Of a stretch of DNA of 64,000 bases, positions 56,097 to 64,000 are shown one piece after another. Position 1 is the first letter of the stretch. Every line of letters begins with the position of its first letter. A program made the translations under genes and the position numbers. A model generated the notes under the pieces. It ran no database searches, was not told where the DNA came from, and saw nothing but the letters and a program-made list of their open reading frames with translations. The stretch covers positions 64,977 to 128,976 of the forward strand of contig JAPLVR010000006.1 in the NCBI GenBank assembly GCA_026397015.1, given 5' to 3'. Source of the stretch: Candidatus Iainarchaeum sp. (GTDB lineage Archaea > Iainarchaeota > Iainarchaeia > Iainarchaeales > JAAZKV01).

Positions 56097-57923
56097 ATGG
56101 CAGAAGACTATCTGACCGGGCTGATGAAACAGCTCAAAGACAAAACCGTTTCTGAAACAGGGGAAGAAAATGCGGATTCGGAGACACAGCCGCAGACTTT
56201 TTCAACCGAAAAATCCGCACAAACAACCGACGAAGAAATAATTCTTTCGGCAAAAAAAGAAGATGCGCCGATAATAAAGGCGCCGACTTATGAGGCGGAA
56301 ATCGAAGGGCCAGAAGCGGAAGGCGCGGGAAGAGAAGGAATCGGGATCGATAGAACAGGCGCAGAAACCGGGGCGCTATCTCCTCTGAAAAAAGAAATAA
56401 TCGAAGGGGATGAAAAAGCGGCGGAAGTGATTGAAAAAACAACCGCGGAAAAAGAAGTCGAGCAGAGCCAAAAAATAGAACTGAAATCTTACGGCAAAGT
56501 AAAAATATTTAAGATTCCGGAAAAGCCGCTGCCCTACTATTTCATTCCTACGCCGAGACCGACATCGGCTGAAAGAAAAATAATTAACACGATAAAAGAG
56601 GCAACCACAAGACTAATCTCTATCGCACCCTACAAAGTCAGGGACCCGGAACAAAGGCGCATCGTGTACAAACAAAAAATAATTGAAATAATCAAAAACA
56701 GCCCGTCGCTAAGAGTGCCGGAAAGCAGAATAAATTTTTACGCGGAAGCGGTTGTAAGGGAAATGGTCGGTTACGGAATAATTGACGACCTGATAAAAGA
56801 TGACGGACTTGAAGAAATAATGATAATAGGCCCGAAGAAACCAATCTACGTTTTCCACAGAGAATTCGAAATGATGAGCACCAACATAGAATTTTTTTCC
56901 GAACAGGAAATAGAAGACCTGATAAATAAAATTGCAAGAGAAGTCGGAAGAAGGGTCGATGTTTCGGCGCCGCTACTTGACGCCAGGCTTCCCGACGGAA
57001 GCAGGGTAAATGCAACTATTCCTCCGGCATCCATAAGCGGCGGAACACTAACAATAAGAAAATTCAGGGCAGACCCTTACTCTATAATCGACCTCGTAAA
57101 ATTGGGAACACTTACAAGCGAAGCCGCCGCATTCCTCTGGCTTTGCGCCGAGGGAATGAGCGTGAAACCTGCAAACATCCTAATTTCCGGAGGCACGGGG
57201 TCTGGAAAAACAACGCTGTTGAATGTGCTTACCGCATTTGTTCCGGAAAGGGAAAGAGTAATAACAATCGAAGACACAGCCGAATTAAGTTTGCCGCTCA
57301 AGCACTGGATAAGGATGGAGGGGCGGCCGCCCGGATTGGAGGGAACAGGCGAGTTGAAGATGGATATACTCACAAAGAACTCGCTGAGAATGAGACCGGA
57401 CAGAATCATCGTCGGAGAAATAAGGCACGAAGAAGCATTCACTCTTTTCACCGCACTCAACACGGGCCATGACGGATGCATGGGAACAGTTCACGCAAAC
57501 AGCCCGCAGGAAACAATAATCAGAGTAACGAATCCGCCCATGAATGTTCCGCAAATAATGCTAAGCGGACTAGACTTGATAATAATAGAACACAGGATGC
57601 ACGACAGAAAAAAAGGAACAATAAGAAGAATAACCGAAATAGCCGAAATTTATAACGCGCTCGAAGGCAACCCGAAAACGGAAACAATCTACAAATGGGA
57701 CCCGATTAAAGACACACTTGAAAAAACACTTGTAAACAGCAGGTATCTTGCCGACCTGAGGGCTTTCAGCGGCCTCAATAAGGAACAGATAAATGCGGAG
57801 CTCGAAATAAGAAAAACATTTTTGGAAGAATTGCTCAAACAAAACGTGCGAAGCATCTCCGCGGTTTCATCCGCAACAAAAAAGTTTTTAACAAAAAAAG
57901 CCGAAGCGGGCGATACACGATGA
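56097..57923 (+). CDS. type II/IV secretion-family ATPase (TadA/FlaI/EpdL-like)
   Basis: Walker A SGGTGSGKTTLL, Asp box ITIEDTAEL, Walker B PDRIIVGEIR, His box GHDGCMGTVHAN. The N-terminal ~130 aa is acidic and low-complexity. Confidence 0.85.
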   Translation: MAEDYLTGLMKQLKDKTVSETGEENADSETQPQTFSTEKSAQTTDEEIILSAKKEDAPIIKAPTYEAEIEGPEAEGAGREGIGIDRTGAETGALSPLKKEIIEGDEKAAEVIEKTTAEKEVEQSQKIELKSYGKVKIFKIPEKPLPYYFIPTPRPTSAERKIINTIKEATTRLISIAPYKVRDPEQRRIVYKQKIIEIIKNSPSLRVPESRINFYAEAVVREMVGYGIIDDLIKDDGLEEIMIIGPKKPIYVFHREFEMMSTNIEFFSEQEIEDLINKIAREVGRRVDVSAPLLDARLPDGSRVNATIPPASISGGTLTIRKFRADPYSIIDLVKLGTLTSEAAAFLWLCAEGMSVKPANILISGGTGSGKTTLLNVLTAFVPERERVITIEDTAELSLPLKHWIRMEGRPPGLEGTGELKMDILTKNSLRMRPDRIIVGEIRHEEAFTLFTALNTGHDGCMGTVHANSPQETIIRVTNPPMNVPQIMLSGLDLIIIEHRMHDRKKGTIRRITEIAEIYNALEGNPKTETIYKWDPIKDTLEKTLVNSRYLADLRAFSGLNKEQINAELEIRKTFLEELLKQNVRSISAVSSATKKFLTKKAEAGDTR

Positions 57924-59026
57924 GCGAACAGGGCGCAAGTTCATATGCAATAGACAAGGATGAGGTTGAAAGAATAGTCGAGGGAATGAAGAAGAAATAC
58001 CGCGACGACGGAATGCACTTCGAGGAGGTTTCCGACAATCTCAAAGAATTGCGGGGAATTATTGCGGAAGAATCATATTCAAAAATAGACATCGAAAGCG
58101 AATCGGACGTCGAAAACTTTGATTCAAAAACTATGCAATTCTTCGGAAACTTTTATCTGAAAACAAAAAATTTTCTAAAACCAATACAGAATTCGCTGAA
58201 AAAGCTTCCCTCAAACAAGGAGCTGAGCTATTACCTCTATTCGGCAGACATGCACTATTCGTCAAACCAGTATGTCGCGATATCAAGCGCTGTGGGGCTG
58301 CTCATCGGGCTTATAACATTCGCAATAATAATTCTTTTGAGCGCAATTCTTCTGAATCCGTTGATTTTGATAATCGCCGTTCCAATGGCAGTTGTAACAG
58401 GATTTATTGCAATGATGATTACGCTCTTTATCCCAAAACAAAATGCGATTGCGCGGGGGGAAGCATGCTCGACAGAACTTCCGTTCGCATTGAGACACAT
58501 GGCAACGGAACTCAAAGCCGGAATAGGGTTGTACAAAACAATACAGGCGATTGCGGTTGCCGATTACGGGGTTTTGAGCGAAGAATTTGCAAGAACTATA
58601 AACGAAATCGAAGAGGGAACGGATACAAGCCTCGCATTAAGGCACCTTGCGCTCAGAACACAAAGCAGGCCGCTCAAAATGGCGATGATGCACATAATAA
58701 GGGCGATGCGAATCGGGGGAAACCTTTCTGGAATAATTAATGAAATTGCAAACGATGTTTCCGACGATTTAAAAAACAGAATAAATTCATTCTCGCAAAA
58801 AATGAATCTCTTTTCAGTAATATTTATTTTCCTCGGGATAGTAATTCCAGTCGGAATAACCATACTTGGGGTAATAAGAAACTCGCCGATAACAAGCGGC
58901 AGCCAGGAAATGTTCAAGGCGATTCCGCTGACGCCGCCCGTAATGTTGATATTTTATTTCGTGGTGATGCCAATGCTTTTCATCATGATGAATTTAATGA
59001 TTTATTCAATACAACCAAAAATGTGA
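57920..59026 (+). CDS. single-domain T2SS-F-like platform protein (TadB/EpdJ-like)
   Basis: ATGA overlap with the ATPase gene. T2SSF block ELPFALRHMATELKAGIGLYKTIQAIA, flanked by TM helices. Confidence 0.75.
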   Translation: MSEQGASSYAIDKDEVERIVEGMKKKYRDDGMHFEEVSDNLKELRGIIAEESYSKIDIESESDVENFDSKTMQFFGNFYLKTKNFLKPIQNSLKKLPSNKELSYYLYSADMHYSSNQYVAISSAVGLLIGLITFAIIILLSAILLNPLILIIAVPMAVVTGFIAMMITLFIPKQNAIARGEACSTELPFALRHMATELKAGIGLYKTIQAIAVADYGVLSEEFARTINEIEEGTDTSLALRHLALRTQSRPLKMAMMHIIRAMRIGGNLSGIINEIANDVSDDLKNRINSFSQKMNLFSVIFIFLGIVIPVGITILGVIRNSPITSGSQEMFKAIPLTPPVMLIFYFVVMPMLFIMMNLMIYSIQPKM

Positions 59027-59041
59027 AAAAATGGTGAACAG

Positions 59042-59950
59042 ATGAGCATAGTTGAAGATTACATAGAATGGGTTGAATTCAGCAGAATTCCATTCAAGGC
59101 GCCAGTCTGGGTCACAATGTCGCTGGGAATATCCGCGGCAGTAGGCGCCGCTTCCTTCATAGGAAGCTTCTTCATTCTCAGCGAGATAACGCTGCTTCCA
59201 ATTGCGTTCACACTTGCAACTCTCGTACTGCTTCTCGGCTACCCTTACATGAAAACCGAATCAATAATTGATTCCATCGAAAAAAACTTTAGTGACGCAC
59301 TCAAACAAATGGCTGACACTCTAAAAGCGGGCGACACCTACGAAAGTGCCCTAAGGGAAGTTGCCAACGCAGAATATGGAAGGCTTTCGGAAGAAATGGA
59401 TATCGCGTTACGAAGGCTCGAGGAAGGCGAAAACTTGGAAACATCGCTCAACGGATTCGCAGAAAGGGTTAACTCAAAAGTCGTAAGAAGAACAACAACC
59501 ATAATACTCGATTCGATAAGAACGGGAGCCAGTCTGGCAGACATTCTCGACCAAATTTCTGACGACGTTAGGTCATTCCAAAGAATCAAAGAGGAAAGAA
59601 AAGCGAATACTACAATGCAGTTTGCATTCATGGCATTGGCAGGCGGATTAATAGCGCCCGCAATTTTCGGCGAAGTAAACAGCGTAATGACAATATTTTC
59701 AAAAGTCTCGCTCAAAATGCTTGAAGGGGCGCAGCTGGAAACAAGCAAAAAGGTAACAGAATTTATCATGATGCTAATTCAATCCTACATAATAATTGAA
59801 GTTATCGCATCGGGCGCAATGATGTCAATAATCAGAGAAGGAAAACTCAACAAAAGCGTTATATATATCCCAATACTATTACTGTTGGCATTCATCGCAT
59901 ATTACTCCGCAAGAATGATAACACAGGGGGCGGTTGCCGGAGCGATATAA
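59042..59950 (+). CDS. single-domain T2SS-F-like platform protein (TadC/EpdK-like)
   Basis: T2SSF block FSDALKQMADTLKAGDTYESALREVA, with N- and C-terminal TM helices. Confidence 0.75.
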   Translation: MSIVEDYIEWVEFSRIPFKAPVWVTMSLGISAAVGAASFIGSFFILSEITLLPIAFTLATLVLLLGYPYMKTESIIDSIEKNFSDALKQMADTLKAGDTYESALREVANAEYGRLSEEMDIALRRLEEGENLETSLNGFAERVNSKVVRRTTTIILDSIRTGASLADILDQISDDVRSFQRIKEERKANTTMQFAFMALAGGLIAPAIFGEVNSVMTIFSKVSLKMLEGAQLETSKKVTEFIMMLIQSYIIIEVIASGAMMSIIREGKLNKSVIYIPILLLLAFIAYYSARMITQGAVAGAI

Positions 59951-60003: not shown

Positions 60004-60147
60004 ATGGAAGAAAAAGCACAGGTAAATTTGGAGTACTTGCTGATAATCGCTGGCGCTGTCGTAATAGCGACAGCAGTAGGGCTATTCATAAAACAAAGCG
60101 CAAGCTCGGTAACACGCTCGGCGCAGGAAAAGAGCGCACAGGGTTGA
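60004..60147 (+). CDS. 47-aa Flp-like pilin (below track cutoff)
   Basis: My own translation: MEEKA|QVNLEYLLIIAGAVVIATAVGLFIKQSASSVTRSAQEKSAQG. GGTGA lies 6 nt upstream of the ATG. Confidence 0.6.
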   Translation: MEEKAQVNLEYLLIIAGAVVIATAVGLFIKQSASSVTRSAQEKSAQG

Positions 60148-60241
60148 AAAACGCTTATTCCAGCTTCAAAAAGCAAAACATTTAAAAATTAGGAAACCCT
60201 TATACAATGGTGGTTTTTACGGTTCAAAGGAGGTTATAAAA

Positions 60242-60550
60242 ATGGAGGGAAGAGGACAAGGCTCAATCGAGTATTTGCTTATCATCGGCGCGGCGATAGT
60301 TATTGCTGTAATAGTAATTGCAGTGGTAGTGAGTATCGGCGGAGGCAATAAGGAAAGCACGAATCAGACAACTCTTGAAGCACAAGACATGAAGGAATGC
60401 CTCATAGACTGCTGCTACAAGACACAGAGCATAAAATACAACCTAGACAAAAATGTTAGTCTGCCCGACTGCAACAGCATACCAAATGTATGCCAAGGCC
60501 TAGACATGAATCAGGCAGCTTGCCTTAAGTGTAATAAAGTAAAATGCTAA
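60242..60550 (+). CDS. class III signal peptide pilin with 8-Cys C-terminal domain
   Basis: AAGGAGGT SD. MEGRG|QGSIEYLLIIGAAIVIAVIVIAVVV. The C-terminal ~60 aa contains 8 Cys. Confidence 0.75.
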   Translation: MEGRGQGSIEYLLIIGAAIVIAVIVIAVVVSIGGGNKESTNQTTLEAQDMKECLIDCCYKTQSIKYNLDKNVSLPDCNSIPNVCQGLDMNQAACLKCNKVKC

Positions 60551-60561
60551 TTTTTTGGTAG

Positions 60562-60581
60562 AAAAGGCCTTCGGGCCTTTT
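60562..60581 (+). terminator. perfect hairpin with TTCG loop followed by T-rich tract
   Basis: AAAAGGCC-TTCG-GGCCTTTT, 12 nt after the stop of the pilin gene. Confidence 0.55.
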
Positions 60582-60631
60582 CGAATATTTTTTCATAATT
60601 CCATTTTTTTACTTTGGGCGCTGGCGCAACC

Positions 60632-60639
60632 TTTAAATA
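60632..60639 (+). promoter_or_regulatory. candidate TATA box about 25 nt upstream of ATG 60661
   Basis: TTTAAATA with no SD before the ATG, consistent with a leaderless transcript. Confidence 0.35.
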
Positions 60640-60660
60640 GCAAAATCACGTATTATTAGC

Positions 60661-60993
60661 ATGGAAAATAAAAGGATTATTGAAGCACAGGGGGCAGTCG
60701 AATATTTGCTTCTGCTGGCGGCGGGAGTCGTTGTTGTGGCAGTAGTAATAACTTTCTTGATAAATGCAACCACTGCGGGGCAGGGTGCCGGTTGCCAACA
60801 GCTTAACACCTACCTGTGTGATACCCTGCATTCGAAAACAGATGAATGCGCTTGTTACATAGGGCCTGGGGGAAAGTGGCCTGATGACACTAATGTAGAT
60901 GAATACATGAACGATAATCACAAAGTGAGCAACTTTTGCTGTATAACATACACTAATTGTGCAGCACTTACGTCGAAATGGAACTGTACCTGA
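60661..60993 (+). CDS. class III signal peptide pilin with 8-Cys C-terminal domain
   Basis: MENKRIIEA|QGAVEYLLLLAAGVVVVAVVITFL. The C-terminal ~70 aa contains 8 Cys, including a CC pair. Confidence 0.75.
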   Translation: MENKRIIEAQGAVEYLLLLAAGVVVVAVVITFLINATTAGQGAGCQQLNTYLCDTLHSKTDECACYIGPGGKWPDDTNVDEYMNDNHKVSNFCCITYTNCAALTSKWNCT

Positions 60994-61020
60994 ATAGTTG
61001 AGTCGAAAAGAGCTGAATAA

Positions 61021-61203
61021 ATGGGAATGATAGGAGAAGAGCGAGCGCAGGTCTCATTCGAGTACCTGCTAACAGCGGTTTTCGGGATAGTTCTGGCGAT
61101 AAGCGCCGCGATAATAATTGAAACACTGAGGGAAATAGCTCTGGGCGCTCAGGCGGATATCCTGTCAACAAGAGAAGAAGTAATTTCAAATATAATGAGA
61201 TAA
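61021..61203 (+). CDS. 60-aa Flp-like pilin
   Basis: MGMIGEERA|QVSFEYLLTAVFGIVLAISAAIIIETL, then a short polar tail. Confidence 0.7.
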   Translation: MGMIGEERAQVSFEYLLTAVFGIVLAISAAIIIETLREIALGAQADILSTREEVISNIMR

Positions 61204-61258: not shown

Positions 61259-62512
61259 TTATTGGCGCCCGTCTCTTAACAGCAAACTTGGAATAATTCC
61301 GTTCAATTCCCCGATTTTTTCAACCAGATTGGAATACCCTTTTGCCTGCCTTGCAACCCTGCTTCTCAACAAATCGATTTTGCCGGAAATTTCCCTGTGC
61401 AATTTTGACTCAACAGAAGGATTTCTTTTGGCTTTACTTAAAAGTTTTTCCAGTTCGATGCTTGAATGATTAATCATTCTTTGCCATTCCATCAAAAGGC
61501 GCAAATTCCTCAGAACGGAAAATTGAAGGGCCCTTGCCCGTGTGTACGCATGCCCGCTTCCCTTGGAAAGATAAATCTTTTCAAGATTGTCCAAATTTGT
61601 TATGACATCCTGGAGGTCTCTTGAATAATACAAAAATTTTTTAGGATTAAAATTTTTAGAAGTGAAATCGCGGTTGGCTTCAAGAGCCCTCTGAAAAATC
61701 CCTAATTTTTTTATCTGCCTTGTGTTTTCTGCAACAAACCACCAGACCGGGGGCACCCCTCTTGGAACTTCGCGCTGGAAAGCCGCTATCTTTTTGCGAA
61801 GAAGCCTGTAATCACCAACGGACATCTTGTCCAAATCTTTTATCTCCGCCTTTAACAAATCATACGCGCTCTTGCCCCCTCTCTTTGGTGGAACAAGTGA
61901 AATCGAAAAAGAAAAAAGTTTTGGCGCCTCTGGCCCGCCAAGCGGAAGAAAAAATGCGTGCTTTCCATCCTCCACCGGAATTGAAAATAATCCCCCCTTT
62001 CCGCCTTCCCTTAAGCCCGGCTTGAAATTTTGCTCCACAAACCTGCGGAGCTTCCTTGCATTCCCGAAATACAGGGCGGTTCTTGTTACAAAACAAAAAT
62101 GCGAAGCCTGTTGATTTTCCCACGTAAATTTTCCACCGATTTTTTTTATTATGACCGGAAAATTTTGCGTGTAATGCCCGAAAGGGCTGGATTTCACTTC
62201 CAGCGTTTTTGCATTCCTGTCAAAAGATTTTATTACCCTGTCAACCGCCGCCTTGTCTTTTATGCCCCCTGTGTTCTCAATCAGCGCCAATTCCTTGACG
62301 GTTGACAAGAATTCTTTCGACGGCTTTTTGTCTGTTAAAAATACATCGATTCCACTGGACCATTTTTTTGTTCCGTGGGCAAATTTTCCTCCGAGACCTA
62401 TAACTTTCCTCTCGGCCCACCTGCCAAACACTTTGTAAAAGGGAACACGCACCATCACAAAATTAGCGTCGCGGAAGTTTAAATGTGTTTTGGTTTTTGG
62501 AAAACCACCCAA
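61259..62512 (-). CDS. hypothetical basic protein (orphan, 417 aa)
   Basis: Long uninterrupted ORF. The N-terminal half is mixed alpha/beta and the C-terminal ~120 aa is helical. No catalytic or binding motif I recognise. Confidence 0.55.
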   Translation of the reverse strand: MGGFPKTKTHLNFRDANFVMVRVPFYKVFGRWAERKVIGLGGKFAHGTKKWSSGIDVFLTDKKPSKEFLSTVKELALIENTGGIKDKAAVDRVIKSFDRNAKTLEVKSSPFGHYTQNFPVIIKKIGGKFTWENQQASHFCFVTRTALYFGNARKLRRFVEQNFKPGLREGGKGGLFSIPVEDGKHAFFLPLGGPEAPKLFSFSISLVPPKRGGKSAYDLLKAEIKDLDKMSVGDYRLLRKKIAAFQREVPRGVPPVWWFVAENTRQIKKLGIFQRALEANRDFTSKNFNPKKFLYYSRDLQDVITNLDNLEKIYLSKGSGHAYTRARALQFSVLRNLRLLMEWQRMINHSSIELEKLLSKAKRNPSVESKLHREISGKIDLLRSRVARQAKGYSNLVEKIGELNGIIPSLLLRDGRQ

Positions 62513-62566: not shown

Positions 62567-63700
62567 TTAGCCTTCCCATGCAGCGTTTTCTATTTCCTGA
62601 ACCTTTCTCTTGGCTTTTTTTGAGCGCATTAACTCTCCCTGGTATATTTTCTTGAGTTCTTTGTCGGAAAGCATCAATTTGTCCCAAGGGACTGCAAATC
62701 CTCTTTTTTCGAACATAGAAATCTTGTGCTTCAATTTTGTATTGCCCATCATCAGATATATTTTTCTTTTCAAAGGGTCCTGACCGCGCGAAGCCAAAAG
62801 TTCAACGTTTGCAATAATCTCCCCAGTTGGAACAATCAGCAATCCTGGATTTGTTTGATAAGCTTGCTTTAGCCCGTACAAACTATTGAGGATTGCCCTT
62901 CCTCTCTTTGACCTGAAACTTTTTTCGTGCAAATATTCCCTGAATTTTGGCGTCTTCGCAATGCTCGCAAGTCTGTCCATTCTCCATGCGCGCTTTGAAT
63001 ACAAATCTATAGTGCCCATTCCAGCCTTGTAAAGAATCCTTGCGCGGTCCTGCGCGCCCCTTATTCCGAGCTCCTTAACCAAAAGATTGTGGAGCTCGCG
63101 CAACTGTTTTTCGGGCATTGTCCAAAGATCAACATAATTCAGGCTTTTTGAAAAATCGAATCCCAGGCGCTTGAGAAGTTTCGATCTTGCAGCCCTTTGC
63201 TTCGGGGTCATTTTTAGCATTGCTTTTATTTTTGCCGGAGAAGGGCTTATTCCCTTATAATAATCCGTCATGCTTCCCTTTGCTTCCCTTCTCAAAGAGA
63301 CTGTTCTAACTTTCGTAAGCCCTCTTTCGGTAACTCCAAGCTCCCCGAAAATCATCCTCCTGAGCTTCTCATTGAAAACCGGCCTTGTCGCCCTCAAATC
63401 TGCATGGAATGCATCGTAAATTCTCCTCTCTGGCTGAGCAAGCCCTTGGTAACGATAATCCGAAATTTTTCGACTGACCAGCTGCCCGATTTTCTCGCGC
63501 CCAAGTTTGAGAGCGATTTTATAGTTGTAATAATCGCCGAAACTTTTGAACTTTGCAGGATAGGCTCTTCCGGTTGCCTTGTTGCGTGCGCTTATTCTCC
63601 TCCGCATCCCCTTTAAAACGCGCCTCTCATACGCCGCCTTTTCTTTCAGATTCATCTTGTTAATTTTTTTTGCGGGTTTTCTCGCGGGCATAAAAATCAC
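62567..63700 (-). CDS. hypothetical basic helical-repeat-like protein (orphan, 377 aa)
   Basis: K/R-rich. The motif [LF]-x-x-[LR]-G-[hydrophobic or polar] recurs six times: ALKLGREK, FGELGVTE, LKRLGFDF, VKELGIRG, LASRGQDP, FEKRGFAV. Confidence 0.55.
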   Translation of the reverse strand: MIFMPARKPAKKINKMNLKEKAAYERRVLKGMRRRISARNKATGRAYPAKFKSFGDYYNYKIALKLGREKIGQLVSRKISDYRYQGLAQPERRIYDAFHADLRATRPVFNEKLRRMIFGELGVTERGLTKVRTVSLRREAKGSMTDYYKGISPSPAKIKAMLKMTPKQRAARSKLLKRLGFDFSKSLNYVDLWTMPEKQLRELHNLLVKELGIRGAQDRARILYKAGMGTIDLYSKRAWRMDRLASIAKTPKFREYLHEKSFRSKRGRAILNSLYGLKQAYQTNPGLLIVPTGEIIANVELLASRGQDPLKRKIYLMMGNTKLKHKISMFEKRGFAVPWDKLMLSDKELKKIYQGELMRSKKAKRKVQEIENAAWEG

Positions 63701-63874: not shown

Positions 63875-64000
63875 GTGCCGATAATTAGGTTTCGCGAGCC
63901 GCGAATGAAGAAAGAAGTAAAAATGGGCTTTGCCCAAAGGCTAAGATGCGGAACAAAAGCAATGATGACCAACCTCCACGTGAGAATGACCAAAAAAACC
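63875..64000 (+). CDS. 5-prime part of an ORF running off the window edge
   Basis: A GTG at 63875 follows AGAGGGTGG, with an in-frame ATG at 63905. Translation: (M)PIIRFREPRMKKEVKMGFAQRLRCGTKAMMTNLHVRMTKKT... Product not recognised. Confidence 0.3.
   Translation, partial: MPIIRFREPRMKKEVKMGFAQRLRCGTKAMMTNLHVRMTKKT

Follow-up and report, generated by a model that had tools for sequence, protein, structure and literature searches.

Three larger plus-strand open reading frames (ORFs), encoding a secretion/assembly ATPase and two platform proteins, followed by four small plus-strand ORFs at 60004-61203 encoding putative pilins, were examined in a window of 64,000 nucleotides (nt) from Candidatus Iainarchaeum sp., a DPANN archaeon of the Iainarchaeota (contig JAPLVR010000006.1, positions 64,977 to 128,976). 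The window lies on a 220-kb contig of a 0.9-Mb genome that is 85% complete. Two of the pilins, here termed p102 and p110 for their lengths in amino acids (aa), carry Cys-rich C-terminal regions and are the main subject of this analysis. Archaeal type IV filament system 1 (i.e. Epd-like), known from methanogens, Thermococcales and DPANN archaea, is defined by several small pilins together with a single ATPase gene and a pair of platform genes (PMC13705601). The present locus had this composition, with its two platform genes separate and its pilins co-located, and is, judged by its predicted products, an Epd/Tad-like type IV filament locus of system 1. Features of the locus are collected in Table 1. 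Elsewhere in the text, G000 denotes the genome under study, C1, C2 and C5 are contigs, and L- and P-numbers are loci and proteins of relatives.

Substrates of the prepilin peptidase EppA require Gln at +1 and carry Glu at +5 (PMC4371748). All four small proteins exhibited an EppA-type signature, i.e. a [GA]↓Q cleavage site (arrow, point of cleavage) with Gln at +1 and Glu at +5, followed by a hydrophobic helix. The cleavage context, behind a short charged leader, was RG↓QGSIEYLLIIGAAIVIAVIVIAVVV in p102 and EA↓QGAVEYLLLLAAGVVVVAVVITFL in p110, and the hydrophobic helix of these two proteins spanned 27-30 residues after the class III signal. A large A24 prepilin peptidase with an archaeal C-terminal domain was encoded in the genome, as expected for EppA-type pilins. 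Pilins A and D correspond to the headless, one-helix proteins of ~40-60 aa typical of Flp/Tad systems, whereas the mature forms of p102 (97 aa) and p110 (101 aa) both fall outside this description. The original prediction, made from this DNA by itself, had taken p102 and p110 to be pilins, an assignment supported by PF04021 matches (that of p110 being below the cut-off), by the +1 Gln and +5 Glu and by the position of both genes downstream of the ATPase and two platform genes.

Table 1. Features of the pilus locus in the window; bit scores for PF04021 (Class_IIIsignal) are to be read against its gathering cut-off of 23.7 bits.
Feature	Position	Strand	Basis
Secretion/assembly ATPase, FlaI/TadA-like	56097..57923	+	PF00437 T2SSE, E 5.7e-45
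Platform protein 1, TadB/TadC-like, single T2SSF domain	57920..59026	+	PF00482, E 3.9e-19
Platform protein 2, TadC/ArlJ-like	59042..59950	+	PF00482, E 8e-17; ArlJ/FlaJ 88 bits
Class A pilin without head or Cys, 47 aa from MEEKA↓QVNLEYLL	60004..60147	+	PF04021 25.1 bits; first pilin gene across the family
p102, class B pilin, 102 aa: MEGRG↓QGSIEYLLIIGAA stalk, linker and 50-aa C-terminal region with 8 Cys	60242..60550	+	PF04021 31.3 bits
p102 Cys-rich head, C53 to C102, opening with C-x3-CC on a predicted helix	60398..60547	+	Cys positions, model
Terminator-like stretch after p102: T6 run, hairpin AAAAGGCC-TTCG-GGCCTTTT (60562-60581), two further T runs	60551..60610	+	Direct reading; function inferred
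TATA-like CTTTAAATAG, ~25 nt ahead of the p110 start codon	60632..60641	+	Direct reading; inferred
p110, class C pilin, 110 aa: ...EA↓QGAVEYLLLLAAG stalk and 73-aa head with 8 Cys	60661..60993	+	PF04021 18.3 bits (E 0.0023); orthologues in nearly all family genomes
p110 head domain, residues 38-110; invariant C53, C63, C65, C93; accessory C94/C109, C45/C100	60772..60990	+	Alignments, table of 53 heads, model
Class D pilin-like protein of 60 aa without head or Cys, ...ERA↓QVSFEYLLTAVF and amphipathic helix	61021..61203	+	Weak PF04021 match, 10 bits (E 0.93)

Both ORFs were as described in the original prediction, with exactly eight Cys each, all of which lie beyond the hydrophobic helix. In p102 the Cys are at residues 53, 57, 58, 77, 84, 94, 97 and 102 (C-x3-CC-x18-C-x6-C-x9-C-x2-C-x4-C), and in p110 at residues 45, 53, 63, 65, 93, 94, 100 and 109 (C-x7-C-x9-C-x-C-x27-CC-x5-C-x8-C); four spacings had previously been miscounted, with x23 and x10 given for x18 and x9, and x33 and x9 for x27 and x8. 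The neighbouring stalk-only pilins (47-52 and 60 aa) were without Cys and the pilin-like ORFs at 37.8-40 kb had only a few scattered Cys, in line with the lack of Cys clusters that had been stated for both. The two heads did not align with each other, again in agreement with that account, and belong to different pilin classes (i.e. B and C). Cys accounts for 1.3% of residues in the long ORFs of this genome, and the chance probability of at least eight Cys was ~3e-7 in 50 residues for p102 and ~2e-6 in 66 residues for p110. A heme-bearing or conductive pilus was also considered and was rejected because neither p102 nor p110 contains a CxxCH motif.

Conservation of the pilin row was examined by a six-frame search of 61 related genomes, 37 of which are of the same family; a TadC scan and a class C alignment scan yielded 85 more loci. 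Genes resembling p110 were found in nearly all of the 37 same-family genomes, and the pilin gene order A-B-C-D was kept across the 38-genome family. Class A pilins are ~48 aa with AQVNLEYLL and class D pilins ~57 aa with AQVSFEYLLTAVF, neither having Cys. Class B, to which p102 belongs, has one to three members per row and the stalk QGAIEYLLIIGAA, and class C, to which p110 belongs, has the stalk QGAIEYLLLLAAA and a length of 94-125 aa. Mean pairwise identity across the family was 68% for the class C stalk as compared to 32% for the head, and 70% for the class B stalk as compared to 20% for the head. Between two genomes of the genus, identity was 80% for TadC (i.e. platform protein 2 and its same-genus orthologue), 85% for pilin D, the most conserved of the four pilins, 70-82% for the stalks, 39% for the C head and 18-31% for the B heads. 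A variable head on a conserved stalk had been anticipated for related metagenome-assembled genomes, and the family-wide values (20-32% and 68-70%) agree with this; as judged from these alignments, the heads are the fast-evolving parts on a constant stalk helix.

The class C heads were compared using a head-only profile run against 1.84 billion representative proteins, which returned 35 clusters, all of 55-156 aa. Apart from one truncated entry, all of these heads contained 4, 6, 8 or 10 Cys. Among 53 pooled non-redundant heads, the Cys corresponding to C53, C63, C65 and C93 of p110 were invariant, and five Cys patterns were observed in total: the core four only (8 heads); the core with C94 and C109 (22 heads); the core with a 'CYxC' Cys and C109 (18 heads); the last pattern with a further C-terminal Cys (2 heads); and the core with C94, C109, C45 and C100, seen in 3 heads, all from the genus of the genome under study, among them p110 and the paralogue P0003. 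Every head with C109 had Cys at exactly one of two alternative partner positions, and no head without C109 did (45 versus 8 heads, zero exceptions); C45 and C100 were either both present or both absent, with no exception among the 53 heads. This pairwise gain and loss of C94/C109 and C45/C100 predicts the bonds C94-C109 and C45-C100 in p110; the remaining two bonds are predicted to lie among C53, C63, C65 and C93.

Class C heads also occurred on other anchors, lying behind a lipobox in P0017, P0023 and P0033 and behind an N-terminal transmembrane segment in P0027, P0034 and P0036, suggesting that the head is an autonomous extracytoplasmic module. P0003 is a stand-alone 94-aa paralogue of p110 (G000:C1:43195-43479; L010 1492-1776) with 47% identity by BLASTP. 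All eight Cys are kept in P0003, with shorter loops, and its gene sits between HIT-family and MCM genes, far from the pilus machinery.

An AlphaFold2 model of p110 built with 23 sequences predicted an all-helical small bundle, with helices at residues 41-55, 61-67, 79-82, 86-96 and 101-106. The knottin-like head that had been proposed is not borne out by this model, in which the predicted local distance difference test (pLDDT) value of the head is ~80. Foldseek found no structure in PDB or BFVD that matched the model with E below 3, sequence and profile searches of PDB returned no hit at E <=10, and neither head was covered by Pfam or NCBIfam. The earlier statement that the heads belong to no described family thus held in the Pfam, PDB-sequence and Foldseek comparisons, and from these searches the predicted class C head is a narrow, lineage-restricted family without a Pfam or PDB relative.

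A different picture was obtained for class B. Of 35 distinct mature sequences that share the class B stalk, 16 were headless (57-65 aa, no Cys) and 18 carried 2-14 Cys with every count even; the sole odd case was cut by a contig end. The heads displayed at least 12 distinct Cys spacings, with a C-x3-C opening in ten. On this sequence comparison, the class B stalk can stand without a head or bear one of a large number of unrelated putative Cys-rich heads, the majority of which open with C-x3-C on a helix. A word-indexed search of a 5.8-billion-protein database for homologues of the p102 head returned only p102 itself, a six-frame search of the 38 family genomes with the head alone gave nothing under E 0.06, and no match was found in PDB. 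The only tie of the p102 head to other proteins was the motif C-L-x2-CC-[YE]...D-x-N-C-x6/7-C, common to p102, to same-genus class B pilins of 87 and 163 aa and to a 376-aa protein encoded elsewhere in the genome (G000:C5:336018-337148). In the 163-aa pilin (L046 1910-2401, from a same-genus genome), which has 14 Cys, the C-x3-CC...D-x-N-C-x7-C module is present as a tandem duplicate, indicating that the small Cys module can be multiplied. The AlphaFold model of p102 (12 class B sequences) was confident for a single helix at residues 43-63, bearing C53, C57 and C58.

Intramolecular disulfides had been proposed originally from the even number of Cys, and this is sustained by the comparative data: the Cys counts of the non-redundant small pilins of related loci were 55 even versus 3 odd, and gain and loss were strictly pairwise in the 53 class C heads. 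These parity and covariation counts are uncorrected for shared ancestry, the class C states being spread across several genera, which is one of several points weighing against the interpretation that follows. It is strongly inferred that p102 and p110 each end in a small head outside the cell, which four disulfides within the chain hold together. As the main explanation of the locus, predicted disulfide-stapled pilin heads on an Epd/Tad-like filament are given a probability of roughly 0.78.

The other points on the opposing side concern the proteins and the route of bond formation. Both p102 and p110 are known here from genes alone. The PF04021 score of p110 lies under the cut-off, the motif being nonetheless present. 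The p110 model is of moderate confidence (mean pLDDT 75.6), and the rest of the p102 head, at pLDDT 35-50, is unusable as a fold. A check of the genome for extracytoplasmic thiol-disulfide oxidoreductases, suggested with the original prediction, turned out negative for canonical enzymes: neither DsbA nor VKOR in canonical form was detected in the genome (85% complete), the VKOR-like match being a 76-aa fragment of 24 bits as compared to a cut-off of 27.5. A CxxC scan of all ORFs detected cytoplasmic redox proteins only (i.e. a glutaredoxin-like protein and thioredoxin reductase). Across the family, a canonical Thioredoxin_4 protein was present in 7 of the 38 genomes and VKOR exceeded the cut-off in none of the 38. 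A membrane-anchored DsbA/GILT-like ectoprotein of 384 aa with a thioredoxin fold (G000:C2:13468-14682) was found and occurs family-wide (orthologues L138-L144). In place of CxxC the active site reads CPYG, or CPGG in one orthologue, which also counts on the opposing side. Several Cys are conserved in this protein, together with an invariant C-terminal ...GSC, and it may be a non-canonical thiol oxidase/isomerase for Cys-rich surface proteins.

An alternative is that p102 and p110 are small surface proteins for which the class III signal and helix serve only to anchor them in the membrane or to give access to the machinery, the heads then being on the cell surface and not part of a filament, much as might be imagined by analogy with the sugar-binding proteins of the Sulfolobus bindosome or the pseudopilins of type II secretion. 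Many class III-signal proteins are encoded in the genome, some of them 400-800 aa and hardly shaft subunits, the class C head also occurs on lipoprotein and transmembrane anchors, and the headless Flp-like pilins A and D would be available for the shaft. On the other hand, in practically all genomes of the family B and C occupy the same position within the pilin row, next to the genes for the ATPase and platform proteins; stalk conservation in B and C is on a par with that in the headless pilins, and a shaft subunit could accommodate a head of 50-73 aa. We regard the anchor alternative as unlikely, and the disulfide-stapled filament subunit is preferred.

Much less probable still is that the Cys bind metal, in a zinc-knuckle-like or redox-active manner, or cross-link subunits instead of forming disulfides within the chain. 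The p102 C-terminus (C-x2-C-x4-C), the lack of a clear disulfide oxidase among the proteins found in the genome and the origin of related genomes in groundwater, which may be anoxic, would suit metal or cross-links. The Cys region is nevertheless outside the cell, behind a secretion signal; paired CxxC...CxxC and CxxCH motifs are absent; and intramolecular bonds agree with the strictly even Cys number of each protein and with accessory Cys that co-occur without exception in a single chain. The least credible possibility is that gene calling was at fault or that the ORFs, or the Cys clusters in them, arose by chance. These are small ORFs in a metagenome-assembled genome, and the p102 head is without a detectable homologue; against this, the four-gene order is kept in 38 genomes with conserved stalks, the class C Cys are invariant and the chance probabilities are very low (3e-7 and 2e-6). 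For p110 the chance explanation is refuted.

If p102 and p110 are filament subunits, the class III signal would be cut at [GA]↓Q by the A24 peptidase, and the stalk helix would be packed into the core of the filament, with the head exposed at its surface. The heads, stiffened by disulfides, would then be exposed surfaces for contact, adhesion or partner recognition. Bearing on such a role is the 376-aa protein that shares the p102 motif, in which a class B stalk and a p102-like Cys module are followed by a C-terminal Lcl_C domain (PF07603, 65.6 bits); from this domain order it is a predicted pilin-adhesin fusion with a lectin-like domain. In a related genome, a gene at the class C position gave a weak Lcl_C match of 23.4 bits, which is below the cut-off. 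The presence of Lcl_C on a class B stalk and at the class C position suggests that the head positions are also used to display recognisable binding domains. Display of Lcl_C would fit a contact or adhesion role without proving it, and adhesion as a function of the heads is put forward tentatively, at somewhat less than even odds. A broader proposal, which taken as a whole we think doubtful, is that the B and C heads are determinants of partner or surface specificity, with one stalk (i.e. B) carrying swapped or re-invented, unrelated disulfide-stapled mini-domains, the C head being an unseen helical stapled fold also found on lipoproteins, and the CPYG ectoprotein acting as a dedicated oxidase.

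The lifestyle of DPANN archaea is believed to depend on cell-to-cell contact, yet the structures that make this contact are almost unstudied. The present comparison gives a family-wide anatomy for the Iainarchaeota pilus row, with two headless pilins, one conserved head and one hypervariable head. Variation in the heads could mark strain-level partner specificity, and at 50-73 aa the heads are small enough for peptide or recombinant production for tests of structure and binding.

Possible transcription signals were read directly from the intergenic DNA. An A/T-rich TATA-like box and GGAGG precede p102. The GC-stem hairpin and its three flanking T runs directly after p102, with the TATA-like boxes before p102 and p110, suggest separate transcription units within the pilin row, and p110 possibly has its own promoter with a short or absent leader.

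The ATPase scored 299 bits as FlaI and 241 bits as a TadA family member in NCBIfam, each under its equivalog cut-off. Its N-terminal extension of ~160 aa is acidic and of low complexity (window 56097-56580), and the Pfam T2SSE match begins at residue 227. The start of platform protein 1 overlaps the ATPase stop. Two strongly basic proteins of 417 and 377 aa, at 61259-62512 and 62567-63700 on the minus strand, converge on the pilin row; neither matched a Pfam family above threshold and a weak RsiG-like match was the sole similarity obtained. A gene for a PIG-L/LmbE-type deacetylase lies between the pilin row and the A24 peptidase (window 63905-64000 onward; G000:C1:128881-129768). The peptidase itself is a 376-aa protein with an Arc_PepC domain (G000:C1:130735-131865; PF01478 53.7 bits, PF06819 35 bits), whose gene lies just outside the window, at a distance of 4.5 kb downstream from the end of the pilin row; a second A24 gene is present at C1:198345. 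Two pilin-like genes, of 153 and 114 aa, directly follow the A24 peptidase (G000:C1:130735-132688 for all three), and with it they show that the pilus locus extends past the window. The 153-aa protein has five Cys here and four in most orthologues.

Of the known systems, the Epd pili of Methanococcus maripaludis are alike in their +1 Gln/+5 Glu class III signal, in a dedicated A24 peptidase of large size that has an archaeal domain at its C-terminus, in having one ATPase with two separate platform genes, and in several small pilins including headless proteins of ~50-70 aa. They differ in that the major pilin, EpdE, is described as headless, whereas two of the four pilins at the present locus have predicted multi-disulfide heads of 50-73 aa; the A-B-C-D gene order is confined to this Iainarchaeota family. 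Bacterial Flp/Tad (type IVc) pilins are very short and of one helix, as are pilins A and D, and the Tad pilus is held in the literature to derive from an archaeal Epd pilus. Flp pilins are not known to bear a head or a Cys-rich domain, and p102 and p110 add a head to this design.

Type IVa pilins (e.g. Pseudomonas PilA and Neisseria PilE) combine the pilin helix with an exposed, variable binding part that includes a disulfide-bonded C-terminal D-region, and the predicted heads of p102 and p110 are comparable to this part. Type IVa heads, however, are alpha-beta rolls of ~100 aa or more with, as a rule, one disulfide, whereas the heads described here have 50-73 aa and a predicted 2-5 disulfides, and that of p110 is predicted to be all-helical with no sequence or fold match. 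Modular type IV pilins (i.e. Streptococcus sanguinis PilB and PilC, and pilin-adhesin fusions) join a conserved pilin module to an exchangeable one, as does the class B stalk with Lcl_C, but the p102 and p110 heads are far smaller than such modules and match no known binding domain. Knottins and inhibitor cystine knots share the small size and the high disulfide density predicted here. They are beta-rich, with three knotted disulfides in ~30-50 aa, whereas the p110 head is predicted to be helical and class C varies in its Cys spacing and, from 4 to 10, in its Cys count. Cys-rich heads on Epd-type, DPANN or Iainarchaeota pilins were not found described in the literature, and surveys of archaeal type IV systems report Cys-rich components for Thermoproteales systems only. 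Compared with these systems, the locus very likely encodes an Epd/Tad-like pilus with two uncatalogued kinds of multi-disulfide mini-heads, one of them with a testable predicted disulfide map. On this reading the headless Epd/Flp design can carry mini-domains, and the Iainarchaeota row would link the headless Tad-type pilins to pilins that bear heads.

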